A stretch of 64,000 nt of DNA, taken from a virus. Below are positions 3,132-59,691 of this stretch, in pieces. The stretch spans positions 40,874 to 104,873 of the IMG/VR virus record IMGVR_UViG_3300028536_000001; one strand, given 5' to 3'. The notes under the pieces are model-generated. The model was given only the letters and a program-made list of their open reading frames with translations. It had not been told where the DNA came from and did no database searches. Position numbers and translations under genes: made by a program. Each line of letters opens with the position of its first letter. The stretch's first letter is position 1.

Positions 3132-4319
3132 GTGGCGATACTATATACCAGCCCCACTCGGGGATATCCAGTAACGGATCATAGTTACTCCGCAGGATCG
3201 CTCTACGATGACTGCCCTAAGAAGTACGACTATGACCGCCGTCAGGGATGGAAGGAGAAGGAGAAACGCGCCTCATCTGCCTTCGGTACCGCAGTTGAAT
3301 CGGCCATCCAGTATCACCACAACTCTGGAATGGTACTATCCGACACCATCGATGAATGGAAACGGCTGTGGGTGCTTCAGCAGGATAATAAAGAACTGGT
3401 ATACTCAGATAAAGATGGCGACTGGGAATCTATGTATAGGCAGGGCGAGCAGATGGTTCGGCTGTACATCGCTGTGTTGCCTACGTTACCTATCCAAAAT
3501 CCACAGTTTCAGTTGAACTACAAGAAGGAGTACTACCCAGATACTGAATACGCGGGATTAAAAGATACAGCCTTCCTAGATATGGAAGTGACCGCTCCTT
3601 GGAATCACCCCTTGCTACCTCCTTTAGAAGAATGTCCGGAAAATGGACAACGCAAAATCTTCATTGACATCAAAACTTCGGCAGCCTTGTATCCGGTAGA
3701 TCCCCGCATGATAAAACTGGACCCGCAGCTACGGAGATATGCGTGGACCTCCGGAATCGAGACTGCCTGCTTCCTAGTTTTGGTAAAACGAGGAATGGAG
3801 TTTGAAAAGGGCGATACGGTTACTGTCCTTGAAGCGTACAGCGAGCAACATCCGGTAGGTACTGAGTTGGTAGTTTTAGATGCCTCAAAAGAAGTCTTGA
3901 CTTTGCTGACACCAAAGATCTATGATCAGTACGACGCGGAGGCTAAAGGGCTAAAAGGAAACGTACTCAAGGAAAAGAAACAGGAATTTGCGGATCGATT
4001 TGGAATTCAGGCTGCCAAGCATGAGGTTACAAAGCAGCGACTACAATTCTTGGCCGCGATAATCTCTGAAGAAGAGCGGCACGAAGCAGGTGAACTGGCT
4101 GGAATGCAGGCTCGGAATATCTGCGATTCCAACATTCAGAATTTCTTTCCCAAGCGACCTGGAATCAAGTTTCCGAATAATCACTGCACCTTCTGTTCGC
4201 ATTTAGGATTGTGCATCGGTGATGAAAAAATGATAAAGAATAAACTAATTCAAATCGGAAACTCACGCCCATCTCGGAGTGAAGAGTCGTCTGATTCGGA
4301 TTGGCTTTTTGACTTATAA
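3132..4319 (+). CDS. PD-(D/E)XK (RecB-like) nuclease superfamily protein
   Basis: N-terminal SYSAGSLYDDCP, GTAVESAI, FIDIKTSA, QLRRYAW, C-terminal HCTFCSHLGLC (Fe-S/Zn ligands). Confidence 0.8.
   Translation: MAILYTSPTRGYPVTDHSYSAGSLYDDCPKKYDYDRRQGWKEKEKRASSAFGTAVESAIQYHHNSGMVLSDTIDEWKRLWVLQQDNKELVYSDKDGDWESMYRQGEQMVRLYIAVLPTLPIQNPQFQLNYKKEYYPDTEYAGLKDTAFLDMEVTAPWNHPLLPPLEECPENGQRKIFIDIKTSAALYPVDPRMIKLDPQLRRYAWTSGIETACFLVLVKRGMEFEKGDTVTVLEAYSEQHPVGTELVVLDASKEVLTLLTPKIYDQYDAEAKGLKGNVLKEKKQEFADRFGIQAAKHEVTKQRLQFLAAIISEEERHEAGELAGMQARNICDSNIQNFFPKRPGIKFPNNHCTFCSHLGLCIGDEKMIKNKLIQIGNSRPSRSEESSDSDWLFDL
3633..3649 (+). repeat. 17-bp dispersed motif TGTCCRGAAAAYGGACA (exact)
   Basis: TGTCCGGAAAATGGACA inside the PD-(D/E)XK gene. 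Confidence 0.85.
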
Positions 4320-4391
4320 AGAAAACTTTTCTGTCAAAATCGGGTTTATATACAATACGAAGTAAAAACAGATATACTGTATCCGAAAAAT

Positions 4392-5498
4392 ATGATTACC
4401 TATACTTATAAAATTCGTCCAACCAAAGCACAAGAAGTTAAACTTTTGGAAACACTGGACTTAACTCGTAAACTTTATAATGACGGTCTTCGAGAATTGA
4501 TTGATCATTACGAGAAAATAGGAAAATATCTTCATAGATACGATCACGATAAACTACATAATTCAAAAAGACATCCCACTCTTCAAGGATTTGTAGTAGA
4601 TGAAACATTAAATCGACTGCATAAATCTTTTGCAGATTTTTTTAGAGGCATAAGAGAAAAACGTAAAGTTGGGTTTCCTCGTTTTAAATCGCAAGATCGT
4701 TGGCATAGTTTTTCTTCTTCTTGTTCGGGCGGATTGACTTTGCGTGGAACTTTATTTTATGCGGGAAAAAAAATGGGAGGAAAAATTCGAGTTAATGTTA
4801 CTCGGCCTCTCCAAGGTAATCAAAAGATATCACGTATTCTCAAGAAACCATCAGGCTGGTATCTTCAAATCGTAACTGATTATGAAAAACCTAAACTAGA
4901 ACCAAATACTCAATCAATTGGCTTGGATTTTGGGATTAAAAATCTTGTTGCTGATAGCGAAGGAAACTTCGTAGAAAATCCACAGTTTCTAAAGCAGTCG
5001 CTAAAGAAACTTAGAATTGCACAGCGCTCCAAAGACCGTCGAAAAATAGGGTCTAATCGTCGCAAAAAAGCAACACAAGTTGTATCCAACGTTTACGAGA
5101 TAGTTCACAATCAGCGCCTCGACTATTATCATAAAGTAACTAGACGATATGTCAACGACTGTGGTCTGATCGTAATAGAAGATTTAAAACCATCGAATAT
5201 GATTAAAAACCACAACTTAGCTCGTTCAATTATGGATAGCAGTTGGGGAATGCTAAGAAATCTACTTGAAGTCAAAGCGGCAGAAGCTGGTCGTCAAGTA
5301 ATCGCAGTACCACCACATTACACATCTCAAAAATGTTCTAAGTGCGGAGAAATAGTTCAGAAATCATTAAGCGTTCGCACTCATTCTTGTCCTTGTGGTT
5401 ACATCGATGATCGAGATGTGAACGCAGCAAAGAATATCTTAGGGGCCGGGTTGGCCCTTCAGGCGTTAACGTATGGCACTAGCCAACGCGTTGCCTGA
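4392..5498 (+). CDS. tnpB: TnpB RNA-guided endonuclease (IS200/IS605 family), solo, no tnpA
   Basis: YTYKIRPT N-terminus, GFPRFKS, RuvC residues GLDFG / VIEDL / DRDVNAAKNI all intact, zinc finger TSQKCSKCG...HSCPCG. Confidence 0.95.
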   Translation: MITYTYKIRPTKAQEVKLLETLDLTRKLYNDGLRELIDHYEKIGKYLHRYDHDKLHNSKRHPTLQGFVVDETLNRLHKSFADFFRGIREKRKVGFPRFKSQDRWHSFSSSCSGGLTLRGTLFYAGKKMGGKIRVNVTRPLQGNQKISRILKKPSGWYLQIVTDYEKPKLEPNTQSIGLDFGIKNLVADSEGNFVENPQFLKQSLKKLRIAQRSKDRRKIGSNRRKKATQVVSNVYEIVHNQRLDYYHKVTRRYVNDCGLIVIEDLKPSNMIKNHNLARSIMDSSWGMLRNLLEVKAAEAGRQVIAVPPHYTSQKCSKCGEIVQKSLSVRTHSCPCGYIDDRDVNAAKNILGAGLALQALTYGTSQRVA

Positions 5499-5550
5499 GA
5501 AAGCCTGCGTAAGCAGGAGAAGAAATTAAGTAACCAATGGTTGGAGGAGT
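5400..5550 (+). ncRNA. putative TnpB omega/reRNA scaffold plus guide (boundaries approximate)
   Basis: Overlaps the tnpB 3' end: GGGCCGGGTTGGCCC hairpin, CAGGCGTTAAC...GCGTTGCCTG pairing, then CCTGC-GTAA-GCAGG terminal hairpin, as in IS605-type right ends. Confidence 0.6.
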
Positions 5551-5586
5551 TGTGAGTCTAAAAATCTATATAAAGAGTGTAAAACT

Positions 5587-7246: not shown

Positions 7247-7486
7247 ATGGTATACCTTTGTCTGGACCAATTTAGAGGAAAAATGTCAATAAATCTTAAA
7301 GAATACCTAGAGAAAATTTCACAGGAAAACGCACCAACAGATCCTGTACCAAACGATCCGTGGGGCTTTAACGTATTCGATGCCTCTGGTGGAAACTACG
7401 ATGATGCCTTTTCTATGGGCTGCGACGAAGGTCGTATCCAGCTAGCACGTGAACTATTAAAACTTACAGGAATGGAAGAGAAATGA
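7247..7486 (+). CDS. hypothetical protein
   Basis: ORF track; true start may be a downstream ATG. Confidence 0.5.
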   Translation: MVYLCLDQFRGKMSINLKEYLEKISQENAPTDPVPNDPWGFNVFDASGGNYDDAFSMGCDEGRIQLARELLKLTGMEEK

Positions 7487-8529
7487 TGCCCGCCCGCATA
7501 GTTGACGGCAGTAGTTTGTACAAGTCTCAAAAGTTGAAGAAAGTCCCTGTCCAATTTCGGGCCGAGTACGCGAACCTTATTCCCTTAGCTGAGGCGAACG
7601 GTAGTTTTGAGTGCGAGGCAGAACTTATCTGGTCTACTGTGTATTCTTACAATCGCACAGATGTGACCCCGGAAATTGTACAGACAATTCTGGATGAGTT
7701 TGAAAAAGCAGGCATGCTGCAACGGTGGGAGGAAAAGGGTCGCCACTACGGTCACTGGACTGGGATTGAAAAACCAGGTCGGCTGCCTCCTCCTTTTCAG
7801 CGAGCAAAATATACAAATTTACCGCCTTTGCCTCCAGAGGTTGAGGGTACCCGCGATCCATCCGGAAAATGGACAACTCAACAGGTAGAAATTCCACTAG
7901 AAGAGGCTAAACACCTGTGGGGCGAAGCTATAGTCAATAATCTCAAATCCACTCTTCCCTTAGATACTCAAATTGAAAACGGGTGCAGGGAACAGTTTGG
8001 GATCGTAGAGCCGCGCAAGCAGTGGGCTAAGGAACTTAAGGAAGCGGTGAAGACTCACGGGCACGACGAACTCTTGGCTGAGTTTGAAAACTGGGTAACT
8101 TCTCAGATAGGGTTTACAGGTAAAAAACCTGTTTCTATCTTTTTGCGGAGTTTAAGTAGCGGAATCGCCGCAACTCCTGCGGTGAAAAGCCCCGCGCTTC
8201 AGGATGTGGAGACAAAAATTGCTTCAATAAGCAACTCTCAGGTGTTTTTCCACAACCAACAGCGTCCTTTATTGGCTTCTTTGGTACAACAATACGGCCA
8301 AGACGGGGTGACTACAGCCTTTGCGGAGTTCTGGAATAGCGTAGATGATTCCAGTATCAAGTTCGCAGCCAAGAATTTCATTGAACAGGCTGGAACTCGT
8401 ATCGAAGCGCGGAAAGCTAAGAAATACCAGACTGAAAAACGTGATACACTGGCTAAAGAAGCCTTAGCTGCGGCGCAAGCTGGAGTTGAAAATGATGTTG
8501 AGGAAGAATACGTGGAGGAAGAATTGTGA
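7483..8529 (+). CDS. putative replication initiator / replisome organiser
   Basis: N-terminal LIPLAEANG.F...winged-helix-like segment (ILDEFEKAGMLQRW); lies immediately upstream of the primase-helicase. Confidence 0.5.
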   Translation: MMPARIVDGSSLYKSQKLKKVPVQFRAEYANLIPLAEANGSFECEAELIWSTVYSYNRTDVTPEIVQTILDEFEKAGMLQRWEEKGRHYGHWTGIEKPGRLPPPFQRAKYTNLPPLPPEVEGTRDPSGKWTTQQVEIPLEEAKHLWGEAIVNNLKSTLPLDTQIENGCREQFGIVEPRKQWAKELKEAVKTHGHDELLAEFENWVTSQIGFTGKKPVSIFLRSLSSGIAATPAVKSPALQDVETKIASISNSQVFFHNQQRPLLASLVQQYGQDGVTTAFAEFWNSVDDSSIKFAAKNFIEQAGTRIEARKAKKYQTEKRDTLAKEALAAAQAGVENDVEEEYVEEEL

Positions 8530-8909: not shown

Positions 8910-10799
8910 TTGTCTGTCCCTGTTGAAGAACTCGAAAGCATAAAGTGTAACCCGTCGGTCCTTCGACTGTATTCCAGCAAAACCAAACTGGAGAAACGCG
9001 GGAAGGATCTTTTCGGAATATGCCCGCTGCATAGTGAAAAGTCGGGATCGTTTACTGTATCCCAAGACTCTCGTGGGTTTTGGTTGTGGCACTGCTTCGG
9101 CGGGTGCGGTGGCGGAGATATATTGTCTTTTGTCCAGAAAACGGATAAATGCACTTTCAACGAAGCAGTCAAAACGGTGCAAGATTTTCTTGGTTCCGAT
9201 CCTAAAAAATCTCACGTGGATAAAATCTTCAAGCCACTAGAAGAGAAGCCAAAGGAGTATAAAACTTTCACCTTGGCTGAATACAAAAAGCTGGAAGACG
9301 CTCTTGCGAGCAGTTCAGAGGGAATGAAGTGGCTTCAGGAACAGAGGGGAATTACCTACGAGACTGCGAAGAGATTGCATGTTGGGTTTCGGCAGGATTT
9401 GGGAAAAATAGGCGAGAAGGACCCGAAAATCCAAGAAGTTCGCAACAAGGGATGGATCGCATTTCCTTATTTCGAGGATGATAAAGTTGTTCTAATCAAG
9501 TACCGCTCTGTGATACAAAAGATTACGGCGCGTCAACCGGGTATGAAAACTACTCTGTTTGGGTTGGAGAGTATTGACCCTTTTGAACCAATTGTGGTCG
9601 TGGAGGGGGAACCGGACCGGATTATTATGGAGCAGGCCGGATTTCGATCTGTAGCCCTTCCTATGTCCGGATTCACCCTGACCCCAGAACTGAGAGATGC
9701 GCTTGAATGCGCAGACGGTATTATCCTGGCGGGTGACTGCGATCAAGGTCCCGGTATCAAGGCGATGGAACGACTAAAACAGGATTTCGGTGATAAAGCA
9801 ATTCTGGTCAAGTGGCCCGATGGCTACAAGGATGCGAACGAAACTTTCATAAGGTGCAATAAAATGGACGTAAACGCCTTTAAGGACCATTTTAATGAAC
9901 TTATCGCCCGGTCGAAAAGCCAGCCGATGCCCGGAGTTTACGGATTGGCTGACAGTATGCTATCTCACGATGAAGGAACGTTAACTGACCACCCCAATAG
10001 GCTAAAATTTCCTTGGCCATCGGTAGATAAAATGGCGATTCTAGTTCCCGGCGCGGTAGTGTTTTCAACCGCCACATCCACTGGTTGCGGAAAAACTCAG
10101 CTATGGATGAACGCAACTCTGCACGGAGCTAGAAAACACGGAGAAATCGTTCTTTCGTACCAATGCGAGCTTAGTGTAGAGGAGTATAAGAACATCGTGG
10201 CCGCTCATGTTTTAGCACGTGATCGTAACACTTTGACGGGAGCCGACTACAAAAAAACATTTGCATTGATCAAGGATTTGCGGTATTATGTTGGTAGAGA
10301 TACTACTCTGACTGATGTAAACTCAGTATTAGACTTAATAGAAGCCGCCGTCAAGAGGTTGGGGGTGACTGTTGTGGTTCTGGATCATATTCACTTTTTG
10401 ACTCGTACGGCATCAGACGAAATTAAAGCTCAGTCTCAAGCCATGCAGCGAATAAAAAATATGGCTCAGACTTATGGTTTGAAGTTCATAGTAATTGGAC
10501 AGCCGAGAAAAGCCGATTCAAAAACAAAAGGAAAATCTCTACATATTTCGGATGCTAAGGGTTCCGAAGCCGTAACTGCGGATGCAGACGCTGTGTATTT
10601 TTTACACAGAGAGGTCGTAAAAAATATCGATCCCGCAAATCCACCGATGGATGAATACGGACCGGAAACTGAGATTCATCTTAAAAAGGCTCGGTCCAAA
10701 GGAAGAGGCGCTGCGTACGCTAAACTTTATTTCCAAGGTTCTATTTCTACTTTTTTAGAATTGAGTAACCATGATGAAGAGGACATGTTCGCACAGTGA
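8910..10799 (+). CDS. primase-helicase fusion (CHC2 Zn finger + TOPRIM + DnaB-like helicase)
   Basis: CPLHSEKSGSF...HCFGGC, VVEGEPD, AGDCDQ, KDANE, Walker A ATSTGCGKT, VVLDHIH, GSEAVTADAD. Confidence 0.93.
   Translation: MSVPVEELESIKCNPSVLRLYSSKTKLEKRGKDLFGICPLHSEKSGSFTVSQDSRGFWLWHCFGGCGGGDILSFVQKTDKCTFNEAVKTVQDFLGSDPKKSHVDKIFKPLEEKPKEYKTFTLAEYKKLEDALASSSEGMKWLQEQRGITYETAKRLHVGFRQDLGKIGEKDPKIQEVRNKGWIAFPYFEDDKVVLIKYRSVIQKITARQPGMKTTLFGLESIDPFEPIVVVEGEPDRIIMEQAGFRSVALPMSGFTLTPELRDALECADGIILAGDCDQGPGIKAMERLKQDFGDKAILVKWPDGYKDANETFIRCNKMDVNAFKDHFNELIARSKSQPMPGVYGLADSMLSHDEGTLTDHPNRLKFPWPSVDKMAILVPGAVVFSTATSTGCGKTQLWMNATLHGARKHGEIVLSYQCELSVEEYKNIVAAHVLARDRNTLTGADYKKTFALIKDLRYYVGRDTTLTDVNSVLDLIEAAVKRLGVTVVVLDHIHFLTRTASDEIKAQSQAMQRIKNMAQTYGLKFIVIGQPRKADSKTKGKSLHISDAKGSEAVTADADAVYFLHREVVKNIDPANPPMDEYGPETEIHLKKARSKGRGAAYAKLYFQGSISTFLELSNHDEEDMFAQ
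9131..9147 (+). repeat. 17-bp dispersed motif (1 mismatch)
   Basis: TGTCCAGAAAACGGATA inside the primase gene. Confidence 0.8.
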
Positions 10800-11395
10800 T
10801 GATTGAAAAACAATGTACAAAATGTAAGGAATCGAAATCTCTAGAATTGTTTCCTAAATCCAGTAAGAGTAGGGATAAGAAAGCTTGGGTATGTAAGGCG
10901 TGTGCAAAAGAATATCATCGTTTACGATACGTGAATAACAAAGAACTTATAAATGAAAGAAACAAAGCATGGGCTCGAAATAACCCCGAAAAGATGGCAG
11001 CGTGTCGTAATAGCTGGAACAGCCGAAATCTCGACAGAATTAAAAGAAATTGCAAAAGATGGCAAAGTGAAAGATCTAGACCGACAAAACAGGGAATAAC
11101 TAACGAACAGCATCAAGATCTTTTAAACTATACCGAACGTAAATGCTTTATTTGCGGATACCTAGATGAAGGCGATTCGAATAGATGGGCTTTGGATCAC
11201 GATTATAAATGTCACCCGAAGAAAGGTTACTCTTGCGTAAAATGTATTCGTGGTGTACTTTGTAAGAACTGCAATACAGGTCTAGGGCATTTCAAAGATC
11301 ATGTGGAGAACTTGGAAAAAGCTATTGAATACCTAAAAGAACCACCCGCAAAGAATATGTCTTGGAGCAAGTATGGGGAGTTTCAAAATGAATAA
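10796..11395 (+). CDS. endonuclease VII-like (HNH) free-standing endonuclease
   Basis: CFICG...LDHDY...IRGVLCKNCNTGLGHFKD; N-terminal CTKC...C.AC. Confidence 0.88.
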   Translation: MMIEKQCTKCKESKSLELFPKSSKSRDKKAWVCKACAKEYHRLRYVNNKELINERNKAWARNNPEKMAACRNSWNSRNLDRIKRNCKRWQSERSRPTKQGITNEQHQDLLNYTERKCFICGYLDEGDSNRWALDHDYKCHPKKGYSCVKCIRGVLCKNCNTGLGHFKDHVENLEKAIEYLKEPPAKNMSWSKYGEFQNE

Positions 11396-11661: not shown

Positions 11662-12711
11662 ATGAATATTGTTCTACCAACTCTTAAACCGCTCATCAAA
11701 CGCGTTGCTGCGGTCAAGTCTGAGGTAATTATCCTGGATACCGAGCATGGCATACTGGCCGCTAAGGAACAGAACCTAGCCGCCTGGGTTGAGGACGAGT
11801 CCCTGAAAGATTCAGAAAAAGTGGTATACTTTTTCCCAAGCCGAAAGTTCACAACCTCCGTTAACCGCATGTCTGGAATCCTATCTGTCCAGAAAACGGA
11901 CAAGGGTTATTCTCTTGTCTCAAACAAGACCAGAATCGATTTGGAAGAAGCAAAAACCGCTTGGCGGTACGAGCCTGCTGATGCCTTGCAAATCTGCCTC
12001 AACACGGCAATTTTACAAGAGCTGATCAAGTTCGTCCAAATTGCTCCAGATTCCAAGCAAACGGGGTTGACATATTCTGGGATGGTCTCTTTGGTCGGCA
12101 CGGAAGATCCGCTCGGGGGGTCAATCGAAGCAATCGCAACGGATGGTAAACGTATCGCAAGTTTATCGATTCCTGCGGATGTGCAACAATCCTTTTCGGT
12201 GCTGTTACCTTCGTCACTAATTCCAATAATTCCCACACTTTCTGATGAAAAAACCTTGCTTTTTGACGACTCTCGTGTTAGTATTATTAAGAGTGGTAAA
12301 TTTACTGCGCGTGCGAACAAATTTACGGATAAATTTCCAGATGCAAAACGTTTGTTTCCAACAGGTTGTGATTTTATTGCAAGAGTGGATGCAGGAGAAT
12401 TCCGCGAAGCGCTTGGCCGCTTAGAAGCTGTAATGAACGAGGAAACCAGGGCAGTCAAGTTGACGTGGGCGCAGAATCTTGAACTTCGTACCGGAAACCA
12501 GAGTACGCACGGAAAAGATGAAATTGCGTACCAGACCCTGCGGGGAAGAGGAAACGAGTTAGCGTTTACTGCCATCTTTGACTGGAAATTCCTGAACGAT
12601 TTCTTTGAACGAGTAGAAGGACAAGTAACCTGTAGTTACTCGGTAGGTAAAAATTTCATAGTACTTCAGAGTAAAGAGAAGAAATATTTGTTAGCGAGGA
12701 TGGAAAAGTAG
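11662..12711 (+). CDS. DNA sliding clamp (DNA polymerase III beta subunit-like)
   Basis: 349 aa, three-domain clamp length; IATDGKRIA, DKFPDAKRLFP, FDWKFLNDF. Confidence 0.8.
   Translation: MNIVLPTLKPLIKRVAAVKSEVIILDTEHGILAAKEQNLAAWVEDESLKDSEKVVYFFPSRKFTTSVNRMSGILSVQKTDKGYSLVSNKTRIDLEEAKTAWRYEPADALQICLNTAILQELIKFVQIAPDSKQTGLTYSGMVSLVGTEDPLGGSIEAIATDGKRIASLSIPADVQQSFSVLLPSSLIPIIPTLSDEKTLLFDDSRVSIIKSGKFTARANKFTDKFPDAKRLFPTGCDFIARVDAGEFREALGRLEAVMNEETRAVKLTWAQNLELRTGNQSTHGKDEIAYQTLRGRGNELAFTAIFDWKFLNDFFERVEGQVTCSYSVGKNFIVLQSKEKKYLLARMEK
11886..11902 (+). repeat. 17-bp dispersed motif (exact)
   Basis: TGTCCAGAAAACGGACA inside the clamp gene. Confidence 0.85.
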
Positions 12712-13571: not shown

Positions 13572-14213
13572 GTGACTGAACTAACAGTAGAAGAACTACT
13601 CGAAGCGCAGAGTCTCAAAGATGAGATTGACCAGATTGCGGAGGGTATCGCAACCGGCGAACGGGATCTCAACACCAGTTGGGTTAAGCTGGGGTCTCGT
13701 GTCCACAAGGTGCGATCAAAGAAGTACTGGAAGACCTACGGAGCGCACAGTTTTGGCGCGTATGTACTTAGCTTGGAGCCAAAGATTCAGAAAAAGCGGT
13801 CGCAAGTATACGTCTGTGTGGGTGTGATCGAAACTCTCGGTTCGCAACTGAGTGACGAGCAACTTGAAGAGATGGGTATTACACGGGCTTCGGTGCTCAA
13901 AAAGTACGTTCAAAGTTCAGGAAAGATAGTTCCCCAAATTCTGATCGATGCTGCTCTCGACCGAACTAAAGATATTGATCAGTTTCGAGCGGATGTCTCC
14001 AGTGAGCTACACGAAGTTCCGCAGGAAAAGGGTTCATGGTGGGAGTTAGGTGGGTTCTTCGTGACCCCCGAAGAGAAAATTCTAATTGAAGATACTATTG
14101 AAATGACCAGACAGGTAGACCCGGTTATTCCGCACGATATTCCAGAACATGAGCAGAACAAATTGACATTTTTGCGTTTGTGCATGGAATTTAGATCTAC
14201 ATACGGAGGGTAA
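13572..14213 (+). CDS. hypothetical, possibly DNA-binding protein
   Basis: GTG at 13572 overlapping the upstream stop; helical N-terminus (WVKLGSRVHKVR...YW..YG..SF..YV). Confidence 0.55.
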   Translation: MTELTVEELLEAQSLKDEIDQIAEGIATGERDLNTSWVKLGSRVHKVRSKKYWKTYGAHSFGAYVLSLEPKIQKKRSQVYVCVGVIETLGSQLSDEQLEEMGITRASVLKKYVQSSGKIVPQILIDAALDRTKDIDQFRADVSSELHEVPQEKGSWWELGGFFVTPEEKILIEDTIEMTRQVDPVIPHDIPEHEQNKLTFLRLCMEFRSTYGG

Positions 14214-14841: not shown

Positions 14842-15183
14842 GTGGCTAAACAGCTCGTCTTTGTGGAAATCCGCGAGTCCAAGATATACCGCATCCTCCG
14901 GACAAACGCGGATGCTTGGCGGTTACCTTCTGAGACAGTGCAACAGTGGCCTAGAGCAGAGGCAGTCAAGACTATACGGCAGCAGGTTTTTGAGCGGTCT
15001 AAGGGTGAATGCGAGGACTGCGGTAAACGGATTACCTGGGACAACGGGGAGTTGAACGAGATTGTTCCAAAAAGCTCTGGAGGAGAAGTTAGTATGGAAA
15101 ATTGTAACTTTATTTGTCATGCGTGCCATCAAGGGCGGGCTGATTCTTATCATGGAGATCGTAGATGGGGAGGAAGACAATGA
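14842..15183 (+). CDS. small HNH-like endonuclease
   Basis: CEDCG...EIVPKSSGG...ENCNFICHACH; first His of the motif is not canonical. Confidence 0.7.
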   Translation: MAKQLVFVEIRESKIYRILRTNADAWRLPSETVQQWPRAEAVKTIRQQVFERSKGECEDCGKRITWDNGELNEIVPKSSGGEVSMENCNFICHACHQGRADSYHGDRRWGGRQ

Positions 15184-15694: not shown

Positions 15695-16153
15695 ATGAAT
15701 CTTTTAAAATGGGAACCACAGATAAAAAAAGCAGTTAACATTTACGGTCGCAAAATATTTGGCTCGGACAAGCAGGATCTCACCCAAAACTGTTATGTGG
15801 CGATCCTTCGGGCGTCAGATAGAATTACTCAGGTGGAGCAGAACAGGGGAGAGGATGCAGCCAAGGGGTATGTATTTGTGATGTGCCGGAACGAGTTGTT
15901 GAGTTCTCAGCGTCCTCTGCGAAATGTTCATTTGGTACCATTTTTTGATACGGGCACCGCAGCGAAACAGCCGAATGAAAAATTACGCGATGCGGTAGAA
16001 TGTTTGAAACCCGAAGAACAAGAACTGCTATACGATGTTTATTATCAAGGATATAGCGTAAGTCAGCTAGCAAAAGCCGCAAACGTACCGATTGGCCGCT
16101 TACAGTATCATAAACAAAGAATTTTAAAGGAATTGAAGAAACTATGCCAGTAA
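15695..16153 (+). CDS. sigma-70/ECF-like transcription factor
   Basis: Region-2-like DLTQNCYVAIL and region-4 HTH LKPEEQELL...GYSVSQLAKAANVPIGRL. Confidence 0.75.
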   Translation: MNLLKWEPQIKKAVNIYGRKIFGSDKQDLTQNCYVAILRASDRITQVEQNRGEDAAKGYVFVMCRNELLSSQRPLRNVHLVPFFDTGTAAKQPNEKLRDAVECLKPEEQELLYDVYYQGYSVSQLAKAANVPIGRLQYHKQRILKELKKLCQ

Positions 16154-16506
16154 CACTTGACGAAAAAATTACAGTAGAATACAATGGTGAAAGATTCACA
16201 GGATCTTTGGTTGAAGTTGCACAGACCATTACAATTGTTTGTGAAAATACAAACTGTCAGAGGGGTGGATTTGACTCCGAGTCTCAGAGACGGACGATAA
16301 AGTCAGTTACTTTAGACCCCCAAAACCCTGACAGCGTACCGGATGATGCTTGGGAAGTGCTCTACATCGTGAGCTACGATAACACGAAGCGGTCCTTCTG
16401 CTCGAAGGGCTGTCTCCAGAGTTTTCTCCAAGCCTACAGGCCGTTAAAGTCTCCGCGACCGAGTAATGTTGTCCAGTTTCCGGACGGCGAAGGGATAGTA
16501 GAATAA
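16144..16506 (+). CDS. hypothetical Zn-binding protein
   Basis: CENTNC...FCSKGCL. Confidence 0.6.
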   Translation: MPVTLDEKITVEYNGERFTGSLVEVAQTITIVCENTNCQRGGFDSESQRRTIKSVTLDPQNPDSVPDDAWEVLYIVSYDNTKRSFCSKGCLQSFLQAYRPLKSPRPSNVVQFPDGEGIVE

Positions 16507-17575: not shown

Positions 17576-18010
17576 ATGCCAAAGAAATTTGATAAGAACC
17601 GCAGAAACAGAGACCTACTCAAAAAATACGGTATAACCGAGCAGGAATATGAGCAGATGCTGGAACGACAAGGCGGTGTCTGCAAGATTTGTGGTAGGCC
17701 TCCTACCGGCAGAGCCTTACACGTAGAGCACGACCACAGACTTGTACACGCCAAGATTCGGACCCGAAAAACAGAAAAAGGATGGTGGGCTCAGACCGTA
17801 GACCCACGCTATCCTAAACTGAATGTTGAGTTTGTTCTGCGAACCAAATCGGAAGCTATTAAAGCCGTCAAGCACGTGCTGCTTCGTTTCTCGATACGTT
17901 CGCTTAGTTGCTGGGCCTGTAACAGTATGTTAAAATGGGGTCACGATGATCCAAAAATTCTAATAAAGGCGGCTGAACTACTCCATGAGCACAACTCCAA
18001 ATTCAACTGA
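17576..18010 (+). CDS. endonuclease VII-like protein
   Basis: KKYGITEQEYEQMLERQGGVCKICG...LHVEHDH...IRSLSCWACN. Confidence 0.88.
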   Translation: MPKKFDKNRRNRDLLKKYGITEQEYEQMLERQGGVCKICGRPPTGRALHVEHDHRLVHAKIRTRKTEKGWWAQTVDPRYPKLNVEFVLRTKSEAIKAVKHVLLRFSIRSLSCWACNSMLKWGHDDPKILIKAAELLHEHNSKFN

Positions 18011-19302: not shown

Positions 19303-19587
19303 ATGACCCATTTTCTCCTTGCTTTGAGCATGCTTATTTCCGCAAAAGATTATAAAGCAAATACCGTTCCACCAACAATAGTCACGGAATTCAAGGACGG
19401 CGGAGCTTATGTAGTTGGCTTGGATGGTAAAATCCGAACCTGCCTGCCGATAGAATACAGCCTTCTAGTTCGAATCGAGAGAACCAAGGGTCAGGACCTT
19501 AATTTCTACTACGCGGTTCCAGGAGTACGGCTATTTCCTGACAAAGATACGCACTATACAGTCCTGTGCGTTTTGGTGAAACCATGA
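19303..19587 (+). CDS. hypothetical protein with signal-like N-terminus
   Basis: MTHFLLALSMLISA. Confidence 0.5.
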   Translation: MTHFLLALSMLISAKDYKANTVPPTIVTEFKDGGAYVVGLDGKIRTCLPIEYSLLVRIERTKGQDLNFYYAVPGVRLFPDKDTHYTVLCVLVKP

Positions 19588-48167: not shown

Positions 48168-48184
48168 TGTCCATTTTCTGGACA
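48168..48184 (-). repeat. 17-bp dispersed motif (exact)
   Basis: Reverse complement TGTCCAGAAAATGGACA, intergenic. Confidence 0.85.
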
Positions 48185-48185
48185 G

Positions 48186-48725
48186 TTATTTCTTTAATGA
48201 GTTTAGTATGTTGTCTATCGTGCTATCAGTGTTTCTGGGTCCAGTTTCGAGAGATACTCCCAAGCAGTTAAAAACTCGTAGAACTATTCCAAGTTCCGCT
48301 CTGTTGTGACCTCTCTCGAACTCACAAATCCATTTTCGACTAGCACCAACTGACTGCGCCAGTTGAGATTGAGTTAAACCTTTTTGTAGTCGAAAGAATC
48401 TAGCTGCGGCTCCGACATCTTCAGAGGTTTTGATTTTAATTTTATTATCGTCAAGTTTCGGTCTATTTGCTAAAATAGAATCTATGAATTGACAAAGTTC
48501 AGCGTCCGCCTCAAACCACTCCCCGCGTATTCTTTTGGACAAGAATTTATCGTGCAGCGAGCCTTCCGTGTGTCCAGACTTACCCTCGTCGATGAATCCC
48601 AACAAGGATAGATTATCCGGAGAACTCGTACATAGAGCTTTTAGACGGGTTTCTGGCTCTCCAGAAGTTCGACCAATCTTAATTAGATTAGTTGTAGCGG
48701 ATTTTATGAAATAGATATAAGACAT
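48186..48725 (-). CDS. GIY-YIG (T5orf172/MUG113-like) domain fused to XRE HTH
   Basis: YIYFIK...IKIGRT...E..LH..F...RIRGEWF plus RLQKGLTQSQLAQSVGASRKWICEFERG. Confidence 0.85.
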   Translation of the reverse strand: MSYIYFIKSATTNLIKIGRTSGEPETRLKALCTSSPDNLSLLGFIDEGKSGHTEGSLHDKFLSKRIRGEWFEADAELCQFIDSILANRPKLDDNKIKIKTSEDVGAAARFFRLQKGLTQSQLAQSVGASRKWICEFERGHNRAELGIVLRVFNCLGVSLETGPRNTDSTIDNILNSLKK

Positions 48726-53279: not shown

Positions 53280-53465
53280 GCCGGGTAGGTTTGAATGTCC
53301 TTGTGCGAGGTCTTGTTCTGGTTTGCCCCGGTAATCAGGCGGTCATGGGTGTTAGGCTATGGGCCTTCGTCCATTTTCCGGACAGAATACCGAACCGCGA
53401 ACAATCTCACTCTTTAATTCGGGCAAGAACCTTGGAGTTTGAATCGCGTAGGAAACCGACCCGGC
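53280..53465 (-). ncRNA. candidate 186-nt structured RNA
   Basis: 12/13-bp closing helix GCCGGGUCGGUUU / AAACCUACCCGGC plus nested helices, in a 227-bp intergenic gap. Confidence 0.5.
53368..53384 (-). repeat. 17-bp dispersed motif (1 mismatch)
   Basis: Reverse complement TGTCCGGAAAATGGACG, inside the candidate ncRNA. Confidence 0.8.
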
Positions 53466-54564: not shown

Positions 54565-57500
54565 CTAGCTGCTGGAAGTCTCTGATTGCAATCGTCTTAT
54601 AGTCATTGTTGAACCGGGCATCGTTGTTACTCACCTTGCGGCGGGATAGATCATTTCTGTCTATCTCTGTATGTCGCCATACAGTCCGGACTATCGCACA
54701 ACCGCTTGACTGCGGTTTCTTCTCGTTTAGTCTCTTCAGCCGAAATTATCTTGCTGTTTGTTGTCTCCCAAAGGAGAGGTTCAATTTGATTAGAGAAGAT
54801 TTATACTGCGCCAAGGTTAACGCAGTGACGTAGTGAACTTAACATTATAAGCGCACCAACCCGTTTGTTTTCAGCAACTTAGCATCTCTGCTAGTTGGCG
54901 CTCACAATCGCTCGTGAGATGAGACTGTATCTTAGCTTTCGCTTCTATCATGTCAGTCGTTACGGTGCCTTGCGGTTACCTCGGGATTGTCCACTAGGGA
55001 GTTTCCCCGATATAGATAGATTTAAAATCGGCAGTTTGACGTACCGATCTGTCTTGCTGGATCAGAAACACTACCCTGTTGAGGAGCTTCCTGAATACAT
55101 TGGATTATTGCGTCTTTGACGACTCTACATGTTTCCAAGTAGTTTGGACTATATCTTCATCCCAGTAGGATGGCATCGTGTAGTCTCTACGGCTCCCAGT
55201 TAGGTTGCCTCGGGGTTACCCTCGCGGGCCTTCACCGATATAGATGTATTTTCAGTTAGCATTGCTGCTAAAAGTGCCTAGTTTCCAGAGCAATTTGTAG
55301 TTTCTTTCCAGATATTGTTTAAGTACTTTTAAGTACATTCTCATAGTTTCTTATGAGGTCGGACTATGTCTTCACTTTCGTGTCTAGCGTATAGTCTCTA
55401 AGGATTCCCTTGCGGGTCTTTCCTCGGCGTTACCTTTACAGGCGTTCACCGATATAGCTAAATTAAGTGGCAAAAGTCTTTACCACTTTCCGGATTTCTT
55501 CCAAGAAAAACGGCGAACAACGCGTCATCTCCGTAGAGATAAGTATTATCAGGTTTGTTTTAGGCCGCCAAGCTCACGCGTGGGGCTCTCACTTCATCTC
55601 TGAAGTGCTCAGGCTCTATCTTCACTACATGGCTTCCTTTAGAAGTAGTCGTAGTGTCTTGCGTATTAGTCGTTACAGAACGCCCTTTTTTGTTTAACTC
55701 CATCATTTTAAGTCTATAGGGTGCTCTTTTCGCAGGATCGTTCACGTTGAAAAGAGATTGATAATCCAACATCAATTGTAACTGCTCACACTTAATTTTC
55801 ATGTAAGGTTTCACGGCTTGTAAGAAATCGTGAATATCTTGTTTCCGACTGAGAGACCAGAGATAGCAATCTTTGTTCTTTTTGTCTGGAACGATGCGCA
55901 GTTGAAGATTTCCACCAAATTTGGCATACAACCAATCGGTTAGAATTCTGTTGGTATTACCTACTATGACTTTACAACCGTACGTATAGCAAACTACACC
56001 TTTACGGTTTTTGTTCTTGACGCGGTATATGCTTATACATCCTTCGCAATCCATTGCTGAGGCTGCGTAAGCTGCGTCGTGCGGAGATAAAATATACAAG
56101 GGCTTTCCTCGGTATTGTGAGTTATAATATAATACATTATAACACATATCCACCGATTTAGCAAGATTTCGTACCAAATTTTTTAGTACGTGTTTCCACC
56201 AATAGTAACAGTAGGAGCAGTGGAGGTCTGCTTGAATGTCGCACCACCAAAGGTGATAACGTCGTCGTTTGAAAGCGGTGCAAGCAGCTTCTCGCGAGTG
56301 TCGTCGCCACGTTTGAGGATGTCGGTCAAGCCGTTCCAGGACTGATCGTTCAACACGTCTCTCACTACGTTAGGATGAATAATCCCTCCGTACTGACCGT
56401 TAGGATACAACGGACGTGCGTTTACTGATACTAGGGACTGAACAGCCGAGCGAATGTTGTTCGCGGTCAAGTAAGTGCCGTTTGCAAGCTGGATGTTTAC
56501 GCTTGAATCGACGCCCGTTGCGGTGTCAGAGGTGTACTGAACAAGAGTGTTCAGGGTTAGGGCCAAACGATAGTTTAGCTCTGTTGCCAGGTTGTTTAGA
56601 AGACCTGGTTCGTCAATTGCAACATCACAATTATGTTTTGGATCTTCAGTATCACTACTGAAATCAACTTACATTCACATGTAAGATCGGACTCTATCTT
56701 CACCGTAAAGGTGTCCAGCGTATTAGCCTCTGGGGTTCCCTTTCGGGTTACCTGCTTCTAATCTTGCTGCCAAGAGTTTGAAGCATTTGGCTGGATTTAA
56801 TGGCACCAGATTTAGTTTAGTGCCAAGTCAGATGCGTTGATATAATCGCTGTACTGACCCACGGTCGCGTTAATTTTGGTTGACGATTCGGAAATAGGTG
56901 ATCCTACTGTACCTTCCAGTTATGTTAACTAATCATCGCTGAATAGCTCGGACTATATCACCATCCCGAAGGATGTGTATCGTGTAGTCTCTAAGGATTC
57001 CCTTGCGGGTCTTTCCTCGGGATTGTCCTCTAGGGAGTTTCCCCGATATAGATACATTTTCGATTAGCATTACTGCTAAAAGCGCCAAAAGTTTAGCGGC
57101 CTGATTTGTGTTAGCAGGCAGAAGAGCGTAGGAGTAGAACTGGATGTTATTTCCAGAGTGCATTGGAAGCGGCCACTGTTTAGCCATTCCGAGGACATAT
57201 TCTTATGGGTCACGTTTGACCGCGCTGCATATTACTATGCAGATGAGACTATATCATTTGATATCGGCGTGTAGTCGTTACGGATTCCCTTGCGGGTCTT
57301 TCCTCGGGATTGTCCTCTAGGGAGTTTCCCCGATATAGCCAATTTTATTCACCACCTCAATGATGGTGTGTTCGCTTTCAAGTTAGGGCTGTGTGTTTAG
57401 GCTGCGTGAACAGCGCACTCGTAATCACTTACGAGAACAGACTCTATCTTCAAATTGCGTAGTATACTAGACAAATTAGAGAAAATGCTTCTCTTTGACT

Positions 57501-58415
57501 CGTATATTAGACATTTTGTCTTACGTTATGGTCGTTTCGGTGCAAACTCTTAATGACTGTAGCATGTCGTTCACTTCTTTCTTTTTCTCCACCAAATAGG
57601 GGATGATAGAAAGAAGAAACCGTTCGGAATTGGTTTCCATATCTTCGCTGTGGGGTGTGATTTTATCTGTTATTCCCGTTGCGTCAATTATCCCAGCTTG
57701 ATAGGCTGCGATCTCTCGTCTGGTCTTCATAGTCTGTGAAGATTCTGTAAACTCGTCCATTTTCTGGATAACGTACTTTGCGTCATCCTTTTTCTCGAAC
57801 AAAAAGGGGTAGAGTTCCTTTAATAAAGAGGGAAGTGCTTTCTCACCGGTCAGTTTCCAGTAGTAGATCTTCTTCTCGTCGTCAGGTACTCGGATGAATA
57901 CGCCGCCAAAATGAAGTACTAGGAACTTGCAGACTTTACGTGTTGTATTTCCTGTATGAACGGAATACTGAATTTTGTGAATTACACCGTCATCTTGACC
58001 GATGAAACCACCTGTGTCCAACATTCCCGATAAATAGGCTAACTTAGACGTTCGTGTCATTTATGAGTTTGTTACCTCCGTCTTGTCTCTTCCATTGTAT
58101 ACCAAAGAGAGATTAACGGATATGGTAAGATTTTAAAGCAACCATTGTTAAAAAATTGCTTTTCTTTCGTCGTTTTGTTTAAGCTATCAACGTTCCCGTT
58201 GATGCGTGCTCGCGATCACTCGCGAGATCAGACTGTATCTTAGACTGTTGTCTCTGTACGTTTCAGTCGTTAAGGAGCCAATTCGGTTTCCTTGGGATTG
58301 TCCACTAGGGAGTTTCCCCAATTTAGTACAGTTACCTACCAGAAAGTTAGTAGGTTGCAAGCAGGTTGGGTAGTTGACCCGAAGATACCTGTATGCTAGA
58401 TGGGGTATAAGCCAT
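54565..58415 (-). CDS. major capsid protein (N4-gp56-like), 11 exons, 329 aa after splicing
   Basis: Exons (5'->3' on - strand): 58415-58349, 58170-58155, 57388-57363, 57195-57095, 56916-56819, 56627-56185, 55549-55482, 55308-55289, 55097-55043, 54861-54820, 54618-54565 = 990 nt, in frame with no internal stop. Lies directly after the scaffold gene; contains GQY.DY, IIHP...D and DP..Q.G.W motifs. Confidence 0.9.
54619..54819 (-). ncRNA. group I intron 10 (201 nt)
   Basis: P1 ACUGCGU/GCGCAGU, P10 AACC/GGUU, P3 UCUUCUC/GAGAAGA, P7 GAGACUA/UAGUCC, terminal G. Confidence 0.88.
54862..55042 (-). ncRNA. group I intron 9 (181 nt)
   Basis: P1 AUCGGU/GCCGAU, P3 UCUAUC/GAUAGA, P7 ACGACUG/CAGUCU, terminal G. 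Confidence 0.9.
55098..55288 (-). ncRNA. group I intron 8 (191 nt)
   Basis: P1 UGCU/GGCA, P3 CAUC/GAUG, R GUAGAGACUACAC, S GAAGAUAUAGUCC, terminal G. Confidence 0.9.
55309..55481 (-). ncRNA. group I intron 7 (173 nt)
   Basis: P1 AGUGGU/GCCACU, P10 CUUUU/GAAAG, P3 UUAGC/GCUAG, P7 GAGACUA/UAGUCC, terminal G. Confidence 0.9.
55560..56099 (-). CDS. intron-encoded single-motif LAGLIDADG homing endonuclease
   Basis: AAYAASAMDCEGCISI motif; probable TTG start at 56099 after GAGG SD; the 3' end overlaps intron P7/P8/P9. Confidence 0.85.
   Translation of the reverse strand: MYILSPHDAAYAASAMDCEGCISIYRVKNKNRKGVVCYTYGCKVIVGNTNRILTDWLYAKFGGNLQLRIVPDKKNKDCYLWSLSRKQDIHDFLQAVKPYMKIKCEQLQLMLDYQSLFNVNDPAKRAPYRLKMMELNKKGRSVTTNTQDTTTTSKGSHVVKIEPEHFRDEVRAPRVSLAA
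56136..56164 (-). promoter_or_regulatory. sigma70-type promoter inside intron 6
   Basis: TTGCTA-17-TATAAT upstream of the LAGLIDADG start. Confidence 0.65.
56628..56818 (-). ncRNA. group I intron 5 (191 nt)
   Basis: P1 GGCACU/GGUGCC, P3 UCCAGC/GCUGGA, R GAGGCUAAUAC, S AAGAUAGAGUCC, terminal G. Confidence 0.88.
56917..57094 (-). ncRNA. group I intron 4 (178 nt)
   Basis: P1 CGCU/GGCG, P10 ACUUUU/GAAGGU, P3 GUAUC/GAUAC, P7 GAGACUA/UAGUCC, P8 CAUCC-UUCG-GGAUG, terminal G. Confidence 0.9.
57196..57362 (-). ncRNA. group I intron 3 (167 nt)
   Basis: P1 CACCAU/GUGGUG, P3 UUGGC/GCCGA, P7 ACGACUA/UAGUCU, terminal G. Confidence 0.9.
57389..58154 (-). ncRNA. group I intron 2 (766 nt, ORF-containing)
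   Basis: P1 AAAGCAAU/GUUGCUUU, P3 UCUUAC/GUAAGA, S element GAAGAUAGAGUCU (P7 imperfect), terminal G. Confidence 0.8.
57521..58060 (-). CDS. intron-encoded LAGLIDADG-like protein (likely degenerate nuclease)
   Basis: LAYLSGMLDTGG and IAAYQAGIIDATG helices; lies between P6 and P7 of intron 2. Confidence 0.75.
   Translation of the reverse strand: MTRTSKLAYLSGMLDTGGFIGQDDGVIHKIQYSVHTGNTTRKVCKFLVLHFGGVFIRVPDDEKKIYYWKLTGEKALPSLLKELYPFLFEKKDDAKYVIQKMDEFTESSQTMKTRREIAAYQAGIIDATGITDKITPHSEDMETNSERFLLSIIPYLVEKKKEVNDMLQSLRVCTETTIT
58171..58348 (-). ncRNA. group I intron 1 (178 nt)
   Basis: P1 ACCUACU/GGUAGGU (U.G), P10 CUUUC/GAAAG, P3 UGUAC/GUACA, P7 ACGACUG/CAGUCU, terminal G. Confidence 0.9.
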
Positions 58416-58447
58416 TTGTTTTATTGGTGTTACATTCGTCTGTGGCG

Positions 58448-59599
58448 CTAACGTCCGTTTTTCTGACGATTTAGTCTATAGGTTCTCATTGCCGATTCGA
58501 CTACATCGTCGGACCAATTGTTAACGTCTTCGTCTGGGAGCGCCTGTTCTGGAGAGGCAAGGGCTGGTCCGCCCGTAACTCGTATTCCAAAGTTGGCCGC
58601 TCGCGTTCTGCCTGCTGGCTGCTGATTATCGACAGGAGGTACAGCAGGTGCCGGTACAGGCTCCGAAGTTGGAGTCGGTACAGGCGGTTGTGGTTCCGGT
58701 ACAGGCTTTACAGTCTGGCGCGGAGCCGGTGGTTGAGGCGCGACTTCCAGCAATTCGCTGGCAAGTAAGTCGTCTTTCGCCTGTTCTAGGTGTTCAACTG
58801 TCCATACGCCCCGTTCGAGCAGGTCTATGGTAAGTTGATCCATATCTTCGTCTGGCTGAATAGCTCTTCCGAGACTTTTCTTTACCAGATACCGAACTAC
58901 TGTGTAAAAATTACGCTGTGTTGGGTAGTAGTCGGGATTTTGCTGAACGAAAGCATTGGCCGCTGCGCTGATATCAGCGAGCTGGTGCGTCAGGGTGACT
59001 TCGTTCAATTTCTGTGCGACTTCCTGTGGGGAAAGTCCGAATCTCTTCTCGTAGTAGTAGTCTTGCGCGGCCACGGGGTTGGATTCAAAAAGTGTTTTGT
59101 ACTCCCATGCTTCGTCGGCAGTCAGGTCGTGGACGACTACTTTCTTAGGCGCGTTAGCCTTGATTGGAACCGAAGTTGCGCTTCCCTCTCCCAGTTTCAC
59201 CTTGCGGTCAAGTTCTCGGACCCGTTTGGTGGCGTTGCCTTTTCCAAGCGCTAGGCGGGTAAGCAGTTCGTCCTTTGTCTTACCGTAAAATCTCTCAGGC
59301 TGCGTGCCCGGAATGTGTGTGTCTACTTCGGCGTACCACTGACCCTTACGTTTGTCAATAGTTACGGTAACGCCGTTTTCATCCGTTATAGTACTTGGCT
59401 GCGGTTCGGGTTCTGGAGCAGGTGTTGGTTCTGGAACCGCCGCTACCGGTTCTGGTACAAGGTCGGAAACCGGTTCTGGAGCAGGCTCGACAAAACCTTC
59501 TTCTTGAGCAATGCGAGGAAGTTCCTCGAAATATGTGTTTGAGTTATCTGCTAGCCGGAAATCTTCATCCAACCAAGGATCAATTGTAGGTGTTGCCAT
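58448..59599 (-). CDS. capsid scaffolding protein
   Basis: Acidic P/E-rich low-complexity protein between portal and capsid; helical core. Confidence 0.7.
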   Translation of the reverse strand: MATPTIDPWLDEDFRLADNSNTYFEELPRIAQEEGFVEPAPEPVSDLVPEPVAAVPEPTPAPEPEPQPSTITDENGVTVTIDKRKGQWYAEVDTHIPGTQPERFYGKTKDELLTRLALGKGNATKRVRELDRKVKLGEGSATSVPIKANAPKKVVVHDLTADEAWEYKTLFESNPVAAQDYYYEKRFGLSPQEVAQKLNEVTLTHQLADISAAANAFVQQNPDYYPTQRNFYTVVRYLVKKSLGRAIQPDEDMDQLTIDLLERGVWTVEHLEQAKDDLLASELLEVAPQPPAPRQTVKPVPEPQPPVPTPTSEPVPAPAVPPVDNQQPAGRTRAANFGIRVTGGPALASPEQALPDEDVNNWSDDVVESAMRTYRLNRQKNGR

Positions 59600-59674
59600 A
59601 TGAAATCATTCTCCTGCACCAATCGGGTGCAACGGGGTATGGTGTATAAAAATTACATAGTAATTTCTACACGA

Positions 59675-59691
59675 TGTCCAGAAAATGGACA
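59675..59691 (+). repeat. 17-bp dispersed motif (exact)
   Basis: TGTCCAGAAAATGGACA, intergenic, upstream of the scaffold/capsid genes. Confidence 0.85.

Follow-up and report, generated by a model that had tools for sequence, protein, structure and literature searches.

Dispersed copies of a short dyad element in a family of uncultured phages and their possible role as protein-binding sites

Why would a phage genome carry the same short sequence at many places, inside genes as well as between them? The question is raised by a 64,000-nt stretch of DNA (the window) covering bases 40874–104873 of an uncultured phage, the 106,512-bp IMG/VR virus IMGVR_UViG_3300028536_000001 (G000 below). An earlier note on this stretch had singled out a 17-bp quasi-palindrome, TGTCCRGAAAAYGGACA, and proposed that it represents a phage-wide set of protein-binding sites. 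The six exact copies that it reported (3633, 11886, 28527, 31512, 48168, and 59675) and the four with one mismatch (9131, 19725, 23168, and 53368) were all found where it had placed them. Three of its weaker copies (7859, 16470, and 33650) have two mismatches, while the fourth (17554) has three and is very weak; a two-mismatch copy at 57754 had been overlooked, as had one at 38540 whose arms are exact and whose spacer is odd. The window thus holds six exact copies and 14 with at most two mismatches, where shuffles preserving dinucleotide frequencies predict 0.00 and 0.04, respectively, and the claimed excess over background stands. In the whole G000 genome there are 12 exact copies and 20 with at most one mismatch.

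To place these copies in a wider context, we scanned IMG/VR for the exact pattern, which was concentrated in a few contigs of ∼105–110 kb. The relatives used below, G001–G004, are whole contigs of this size picked from that scan. They have about one quarter of the G000 genes in common, with a mean amino acid identity of 38–41%, and the GC content across relatives ranges from 39.5 to 50.7%. The G001 genome is only 72% complete. The ends of the G000 assembly share a 77-bp overlap, which points to a circular assembly. Among Logan sequencing runs, SRR7975446 contains this phage and SRR29078244 a closer relative. A megablast search with 20 kb of the phage DNA gave no match among cultured phages; judged by the portal protein (31% identity), the nearest cultured phage is Tunturiibacter phage Tunturi_3, and this match alone hints at a host among the Acidobacteriota. 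A scan of 185,579 bacterial and archaeal genomes (596 Gb) for the core of the element returned almost exclusively lone matches at chance level, along with two 8-kb stretches holding two matches each; it revealed no prophage and gave no pointer to the host.

The element is conserved in the related genomes, as the protein-binding proposal had called for. Defined by its arms as GTCC-N7-GGAC, so that arm invariance follows from the search itself, it occurs 21 times in G000 and 45, 60, 57, and 53 times in G001, G002, G003, and G004, respectively. Any spacer length other than 7 gave only 0–6 copies, and the top over-represented 11-mers of every one of the five genomes belong to the same element. The spacer is directional, reading R-N-A/T-A/T-A-A-T, and specific to the lineage: RGAAAAT in G000, GGAAAAT and GGTAAAT in G001, AGAAAAT in G002, ATAAAAT, GAAAAAT, and the palindromic ATTWAAT in G003, and GAATAAT in G004. 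TGTCCRGAAAAYGGACA is the G000 version of a core common to the family, GTCC-RNWWAAT-GGAC. Near-sites with one mismatch are also in excess (68 observed against ∼1 expected). Their mismatches cluster at the outer ends of the arms and affect the left arm more often than the right (46 vs. 22), from which we take TCC-N7-GGA as the strict core and AATGGAC as the stronger half. Constant arms around a spacer that drifts by lineage are the pattern expected of a protein reading duplex DNA.

Several copies within genes encode the same peptide in different proteins, as had been pointed out before. VQKTD is encoded by the site in the zinc-ribbon codons of the primase (9131–9147, + strand, one mismatch), by that in the sliding-clamp gene (11886–11902, +, exact), and by that near the 5′ end of a gene for a 1583-aa virion- or ejection-type protein (28527–28543, −, exact). 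PENGQ recurs as CPENGQ in a PD-(D/E)XK exonuclease, on the sense strand of its gene (3633–3649, +, exact), and as SPENGQ in an Mre11-like phosphoesterase, a predicted exonuclease (19725–19741, +, one mismatch). Two further genes yield SGKWT (7859–7875, +, two mismatches including an ATCC arm, in a winged-helix replication-initiator-like gene) and SRKWT (31512–31528, −, exact, in a gene for a 266-aa protein).

Comparison of orthologs shows that selection acts on the DNA rather than on these peptides, since the spacer variants of each lineage override the amino acids. In a codon alignment of the primase-helicase the site occupies one and the same codon column in all five genomes, at the zinc-ribbon peptide V-Q-K-M-D. 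Here 12–13 of 15 nt do not vary, compared with an average of 3.3 over the gene, making this its most conserved window. Where the genomes do differ, they follow their own spacers: G004 has ATA for AAA (Lys to Ile), matching the T at the fourth position of its spacer genome-wide, and G000, which tolerates a C at the last spacer position, has ACG for ATG (Met to Thr). The exonuclease site behaves likewise, reading IQKMD, VHKMD, and VRIMD in the three genomes that share it, each tracking the spacer preference of its own genome. Orthologous sites were found in the primase, clamp-loader, exonuclease, PolA, and 266-aa genes, and in the clamp-loader, 266-aa, and PolA genes the window that holds the site surpasses all others in nucleotide conservation. 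For the 266-aa gene this is rank 1 of 876 windows of 15 nt (G000, G002, and G004), the G003 copy lying five columns off (column 76 vs. 71). The exonuclease and clamp sites also keep their positions in a closer relative (L269; ∼65–70% nucleotide identity). For the 28527 site, G003 and G004 sites stood at about the same column in a first codon alignment, in a gap-rich region whose register was not reproduced on re-alignment. The primase-helicase also differs in its gene structure: in the ENA contig of a closer relative that carries P0002, it is called as two open reading frames (ORFs), a Zn-ribbon protein of 143 aa followed by a Toprim+DnaB protein of 466 aa. This split, which lies shortly past the zinc ribbon, could be an intron or a real division of the gene.

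About half of the copies lie in non-coding DNA, which by our own gene calls makes up 14–21% of the genomes. Such copies are squeezed in between the stop codon of the preceding gene and the Shine-Dalgarno sequence of the following one, and where the spacer contains TAA, the site itself can include that stop codon together with the next ATG (TAATG). We read this tight fit as a result of genome compaction. Along the chromosome the sites are spaced more evenly than chance in all five genomes, with coefficients of variation of 0.45–0.81 against ∼0.97 for random placement (P = 0.0002 for G000). The evenness persists in a comparison that keeps the assignment of sites to intergenic and intragenic DNA constant (combined z −4.1).

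Taken together, the excess, the conservation throughout the family, and the selection at the DNA level leave a phage-wide set of protein-binding sites as the best reading, and we consider it probable that the copies form an array of double-stranded DNA sites for a protein. Five other explanations were weighed against it.

The first is recombination. Lambda-type core sites and the sfx sites of R64 consist of inverted arms around an AT-rich, asymmetric 7-bp spacer, with one arm stricter than the other, and the architecture described here fits them. The copies could then be core sites of a phage tyrosine recombinase, with the spacer as the crossover region, acting in a shufflon-like manner or in programmed crossovers between co-infecting relatives. 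A gene of the Phage_integrase family is indeed found in G000 (genome 36573–37559, outside the window; L123:16573–17559; Phage_integrase and SAM_5 domains) and in G002, G003, and G004, with the catalytic R, HxxR, and Y motifs readable. Spacers are fairly uniform within each genome and differ between genomes, as a homology requirement of recombination would give; in addition, a variant GTCC-N7-GGAC copy lies inside the G000 recombinase gene and a site overlaps the stop codon of that of G002. The enzymes themselves fit less well. Those of G002, G003, and G004 are orthologous to each other, lie near PolA, and are of a different type from that of G000, which is 22% identical to the G002 enzyme (E 0.004), although both genomes share one motif; the incomplete G001 yielded no such gene. 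Conserved arms of just 4–6 bp are short for such a site, with dozens of compatible sites pointing both ways the genome would suffer deletions and inversions, and the sites show no enrichment at mosaic or synteny boundaries between the genomes. We therefore regard recombination as an unlikely explanation, if the best of the five.

The second is a stoperator-type system, in which a prophage repressor bound at oriented sites would block elongation across a temperate genome; the earlier note had drawn this analogy. The large number of dispersed copies, half of which fall in short gaps between genes, would suit it, as would a modest sense-strand bias and the integrase-family genes of four of the five genomes, with which a temperate lifestyle is possible. 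The crucial point is orientation. Eight of the ten strong copies in the window do carry GAAAA on the sense strand, as had been stated, whereas the bias over the five genomes is merely 73:38 in genes and 73:37 between them and is absent from the intragenic copies of G002 (sense to antisense 14:16). As A-rich heptamers are 1.1–2.4-fold commoner on the sense strand in these genomes, a bias of ∼2:1 is about what the A>T skew of that strand leads one to expect. Both orientations are present in every genome, and no other polarity pattern along the genome, of a replication- or packaging-like kind, was seen. Orthologous sites can even be inverted: in the 266-aa gene the spacers of G002, G003, and G004 run opposite to that of G000 (SRKWT vs. 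SIFWT in G002 and SIIWT in G004), and the same was found for a 245-aa gene (G003 vs. G004) and upstream of a conserved 92-aa gene. Orientation is therefore not tied to transcription. Moreover, only four of 154 extended −10-like matches (TGnTAnAAT, five genomes) have a site just upstream, and a conserved repressor was not identified. With these points against it, the stoperator reading seems slightly less probable than recombination.

The 92-aa gene just mentioned has a motif copy ahead of its ribosome-binding site in four genomes, in both orientations. In G000 it adjoins a gene for a very basic protein of 50–67 aa that is unusually conserved, with 62–71% identity in three relatives (genome 952–1230 and 628–831, respectively, both on the − strand). 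No Pfam family was found for either.

A third possibility is that the element acts in RNA, as an mRNA hairpin with a stem of 5–6 bp and a GAAAA-type loop resembling lambda boxB, serving as a translational operator or as a processing or anti-termination site. The 17-mer folds at −5 to −7 kcal/mol, and intergenic copies are placed after the stop codon and ahead of the Shine-Dalgarno sequence, 8–16 nt from the start codon, some with the TAATG overlap. In G001 the intergenic copies have covarying flanks that lengthen the stem to 8–9 bp. In the other four genomes, however, flank complementarity is at or below expectation, and near-sites do not favor transitions on the A-rich strand that would preserve G-U pairing (13 vs. 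25). One third of the copies lie antisense, orthologous sites can have the loop inverted, and copies deep inside genes are conserved. Invariant arms with a variable loop are the opposite of typical RNA–protein recognition. A sister lineage (L261/L266/L268) has the motif GTAC-GGAAAAC-GGA(N), which is non-palindromic and hence unable to form a hairpin. Compared with lambda nut/boxB sites, the copies are numerous (21–60 per genome), their loop varies and inverts, and most are far from promoters. The loose orientation with its flips and this non-palindromic sister version argue against the RNA-hairpin reading as they do against stoperators and promoters, and we give an RNA-level element slightly less credit still.

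Selfish or recombinogenic repeats, the fourth alternative, would be hairpins of the REP/MITE type moved by a transposase, or gene-shuffling cassettes resembling the PeSL elements of T4-type phages. The copies are scattered, with an enrichment between genes, a longer intercistronic cassette is repeated in G001, and in Cluster O phages comparable repeats mark deletions (PMC4351075). In three cases (copies in G003 and G004) a TGGTATAAT promoter is found 6 nt downstream of a site, and the window encodes a TnpB. A Y1 (RAYT/TnpA) transposase, PF01797, was not found in G000, and the TnpB gave no blastp match in G001–G004. Half of the copies are in frame inside genes, some at orthologous positions of core genes in genomes that are ∼60% diverged, which differs from REP/REPIN-RAYT systems, whose hairpin repeats are restricted to intergenic DNA; most copies have no promoter or terminator attached, and mosaic boundaries are not enriched for them. 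This makes selfish repeats a very improbable source of the array. The TnpB gene (OrfB_IS605/Cas12f-like, 4392–5498, +) stands solo within a low-GC patch.

Least probable of all is a promoter recognized by a sigma factor or RNA polymerase of the phage itself. In its favor one could cite the sense bias, the −10-like spacers (GAAAAT, TAAAAT, GATAAT), and a small Sigma70_r4 protein (15695–16153). Against it, one third of the copies are antisense, and those that lie 0–3 nt from the Shine-Dalgarno sequence or contain the start codon leave a transcript no space to begin; an ortholog of the sigma-like gene exists in G003 only, and ordinary TTGACA-17-TGnTATAAT promoters occur separately from the sites. 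Very strong sigma70-type promoters lie in the window at about 23255–23299, 39765–39810, 60020–60060, and 62920–62960, and TGTGGTATAATG is found ∼14 times in G004 (L125–L130) alongside TTGACA-17-TGnTATAAT promoters. The host RNA polymerase is evidently used for many genes of these phages.

If the copies are sites for a protein, which protein might read them? Among the candidates listed earlier, one stood up to comparison: a protein of 213 aa encoded next to the clamp gene (13572–14213, +; ORF open from 13476), which is conserved in every relative (orthologs in five of five genomes). Orthologs were also found in 16 further viral loci, and the family comprises 535 cluster representatives, nearly all of them stand-alone proteins of 210–250 aa. 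Searches against Pfam, PHROGs, and PDB sequences gave no match. The AlphaFold (AF2) model (pLDDT 84) is nearly all helix with one short beta-hairpin, and its best fold matches are the DNA-binding domains of Spo0J, ParB, and KorB (Foldseek E 0.09–1). An independent all-against-all aligner put the same three domains on top, with Z of 7.9, 6.9, and 6.0, values that are middling for a helical protein. The match to the ParB DNA-binding domain is confined to the first ∼140 residues. AlphaFold DB matches of the model include the N-terminal domains of DUF222-HNH nucleases.

An HNH-type zinc-finger, nuclease-like protein of 113 aa (14842–15183, +; Pfam HNH E 1.8e-5) is encoded near the 213-aa protein, and in 15 of the 16 loci an HNH-type gene follows that for the 213-aa protein at a distance of 40–620 nt. 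One protein, P0110, is a natural fusion of the 213-aa family with HNH (hhalign probability 99.4%), and in another, P0132, the family is fused to an FtsK-gamma DNA-reading domain.

The other candidates were rejected. The XRE/GIY-YIG-HTH gene at 48186 and the ORF at 19303–19587 (the "HTH at 19584" of the earlier list) have an ortholog in none or only one of the relatives, and the sigma-r4-like gene in G003 only. A winged-helix initiator-like protein (7483–8529) has an N-terminal domain that is not conserved across the genomes.

From these data we put forward the following explanation. This family of ∼105–110-kb uncultured phages keeps, at about one copy per 2–5 kb and both in and between genes, a 15-bp sequence, GTCC-RNWWAAT-GGAC, that is probably recognized as double-stranded DNA; a pair of short inverted arms encloses a directional 7-bp spacer rich in A, and the right half (AATGGAC) is the stricter one. 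The sites would serve as a docking array for a conserved, phage-encoded, sequence-specific protein that acts on the whole chromosome rather than on single promoters and that could mark, coat, or organize it or nick it at intervals. The ParB/KorB-fold-like 213-aa protein is the foremost candidate for this reader, presumed to work with the neighboring HNH-type protein. As a whole, a 15-bp docking array with this pair as its leading candidate is an explanation toward which we lean with some caution. That the 213-aa protein itself is the reader is a tentative assignment, somewhat less likely than not, and nicking as the outcome of binding appears unlikely.

Several observations weigh against this explanation. 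The 213-aa protein lacks a sequence-level match to any DNA-binding family, and the scores of its fold matches (Z < 8, Foldseek E 0.09–1) are middling for a helical protein. The adjacency of the gene pair is in itself weak evidence because the replication module is generally syntenic, and P0110, a single fusion, could be a gene-calling artifact. Conserved nuclease activity is doubtful, as the HNH proteins of G000 and of about half of the homologs have Asn in place of the canonical first His of the motif, at the general-base position. A symmetric dimer alone does not explain the conserved directional spacer, and many intergenic copies abut the Shine-Dalgarno sequence or hold TAATG, where a role at the level of translation may be considered. 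Two contigs with distant family members show no array, at a length of only 7–8 kb that is too short to judge.

Sister lineages with diverged 213-aa orthologs carry other genome-wide motifs. In one of them (L254–256) the motif is TGTTCAC-N3-GTGAACA, whose arms resemble the parS half-site, TGTTNCAC. Tunturi_3, in turn, has neither a 213-aa homolog nor any such array. Both observations speak for the 213-aa protein as the reader, the latter only as a co-absence. Further repeats came up in the same genomes and lineages. L253 (IMGVR_UViG_3300012922_000007) contains the pattern CGAGG[TA][CT]A 39 times in 20 kb on both strands, most commonly in the exact form CGAGGTCA (19 times), beside a degenerate version of the motif, GTCCGGA-N3/4-TGGAC. 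G002 (L110–L115) has a second over-represented motif, CCGCTGGTGGCCGAG, with ∼20 copies genome-wide, which includes the E. coli Chi octamer GCTGGTGG, and in G003 ACAGGTTCGCGCCG is present in 10–12 copies.

The docking array could also be viewed as a self-marking tag, read by a hitherto undescribed two-part enzyme of a ParB-fold-like reader and an HNH-type module that places strand-specific nicks or a protein mark every 2–5 kb. We think this version unlikely. Were it true, it would amount to T5-style localized nicking, or to self/non-self discrimination of phage DNA, with the reader identified; the motif would co-evolve with its reader lineage by lineage, and the parts would be split in most phages and fused in some.

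The remaining copies in the window fall in varied surroundings. Intergenic ones are found close to the junction of two gene arms (23168–23184, −, one mismatch) and, antisense to both flanking genes, at 59675–59691 (+, exact). Another (48168–48184, −, exact) lies 1 nt past the stop of a GIY-YIG/T5orf172-HTH gene and 21 nt ahead of the start of a conserved 189-aa gene, whose G002 ortholog also has a site at its start. The copy at 53368–53384 (−, one mismatch) lies in a non-coding stretch of ∼250 bp. The non-coding sequence at 53280–53465 (−) folds better than shuffled sequences (z −2.67), but in the minimum-energy structure predicted for it the motif copy does not form an apical hairpin. Two-mismatch copies occur antisense inside a 120-aa ORF (16470–16486, −), in a 270-aa gene (33650–33666, −), and inside an ORF of the capsid region described earlier as an intron-borne LAGLIDADG ORF (57754–57770, −). 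The weak copy at 38540–38556 (+), with exact arms (GTCC..GGAC) and the atypical spacer ACACAAT, is antisense in a 1276-aa gene.

The capsid-gene region also holds four group I introns above the Rfam gathering score (55125–57372, −), which at least partly fit a separate earlier note of a multi-intron capsid gene. Free-standing genes resembling homing endonucleases are numerous in the window (10796–11395, 17576–18010, 20870–21631, 48186–48725, and 62147–62935), among them at least three of the Endonuclease VII type besides HNH/EndoVII and GIY-YIG-HTH types. Most have no orthologs in the relatives or only weak partial matches.

Short, strictly conserved repeats dispersed in phage genomes, among them that of Cluster O and the nick sites known from T5, tf, and phiKMV, are left unexplained in the studies that describe them (PMC4351075, PMC3517423). 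The present family offers deep comparative leverage on them, with at least five lineages at ∼40% protein identity that have one core motif, sister lineages that have switched motifs, and a candidate reader pair that is concrete and clonable. If the reader is confirmed, it would represent a new family of sequence-specific DNA-binding proteins, none of whose 535 cluster representatives matches the Pfam families scanned, and a new way of organizing or marking phage chromosomes.

How does the array compare with known systems? The localized nick sites of T5/BF23, phiKMV-like phages, and phage tf have a short consensus, are confined to one strand, and number 4–14, and their function is unexplained (PMC3517423). 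A short consensus repeated along the genome and conserved among relatives is common to both, and the HNH-type partner would fit a nickase; here, in contrast, there are 21–60 sites on both strands, and the catalytic His of the HNH protein is not conserved. PeSL cassettes of T4-type phages combine a terminator with a promoter, are confined to hyperplastic regions, and drive shuffling (PMC2839356, PMC4122927). The resemblance lies in an intergenic stem-loop repeat that sometimes stands beside a strong sigma70 promoter, as in the G001 cassettes and the three copies in G003 and G004, whereas most copies here are without a promoter, many are inside core genes, and mosaic boundaries are not enriched.

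The stoperators of Cluster A phages are fully asymmetric 13-mers bound by a monomer of the L5 gp71-type repressor; the orientation of L5-type stoperators is strikingly correlated with transcription and they fail when reversed (PMC9283540). Dozens of short sites throughout the genome, many in short intergenic gaps, and one phage protein as the reader, here a predicted one, are shared features, while the dyad arms and a loose orientation that flips at orthologous sites set the present element apart. With ParB-parS, Noc-NBS, and KorB-OB it shares palindromic sites of 13–16 bp dispersed over the replicon. In those systems a single helix-turn-helix protein reads the sites and acts on the whole replicon, as the candidate reader would do here if its best fold matches, the DNA-binding domains of this group, reflect its function. 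The differences are the directional spacer, the HNH-type partner, and a candidate reader without sequence-level homology. A true ParB/ParA system, as one form of the earlier proposal had it, is not supported, as the ParB N-terminal (CTPase) domain PF02195 had no match in G000–G004, where control genomes were positive, and the ParA-type ATPase PF01656 had none in G000, the only genome searched.

The closest described analog is a 17-bp dyad repeat known from Cluster O mycobacteriophages, TGTTCGG-NNN-CCGAACA, which is present in 34 copies with invariant arms and an A/T-rich asymmetric center (PMC4351075). These repeats lie between genes, near 5′ ends, and deep in genes, their orientation is untied to transcription, few are near promoters, and their positions are common to relatives; the authors proposed that they are sites for a dimeric protein and assigned no function (PMC4351075). 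The element described here shows the same features, with 21–60 copies per genome, an RNWWAAT spacer, sites in and between genes, loose orientation, and shared positions. The phages are unrelated and so are the sequences, the Cluster O arms being 7 bp long around a 3-bp center, compared with 4–5 bp around 7 bp here, and in our case no link of the repeats to insertions or deletions was found. What the present family adds is a motif kept across a far deeper divergence (∼40% protein identity), a lineage-specific spacer that is imposed on codons, and an even spacing that was quantified.

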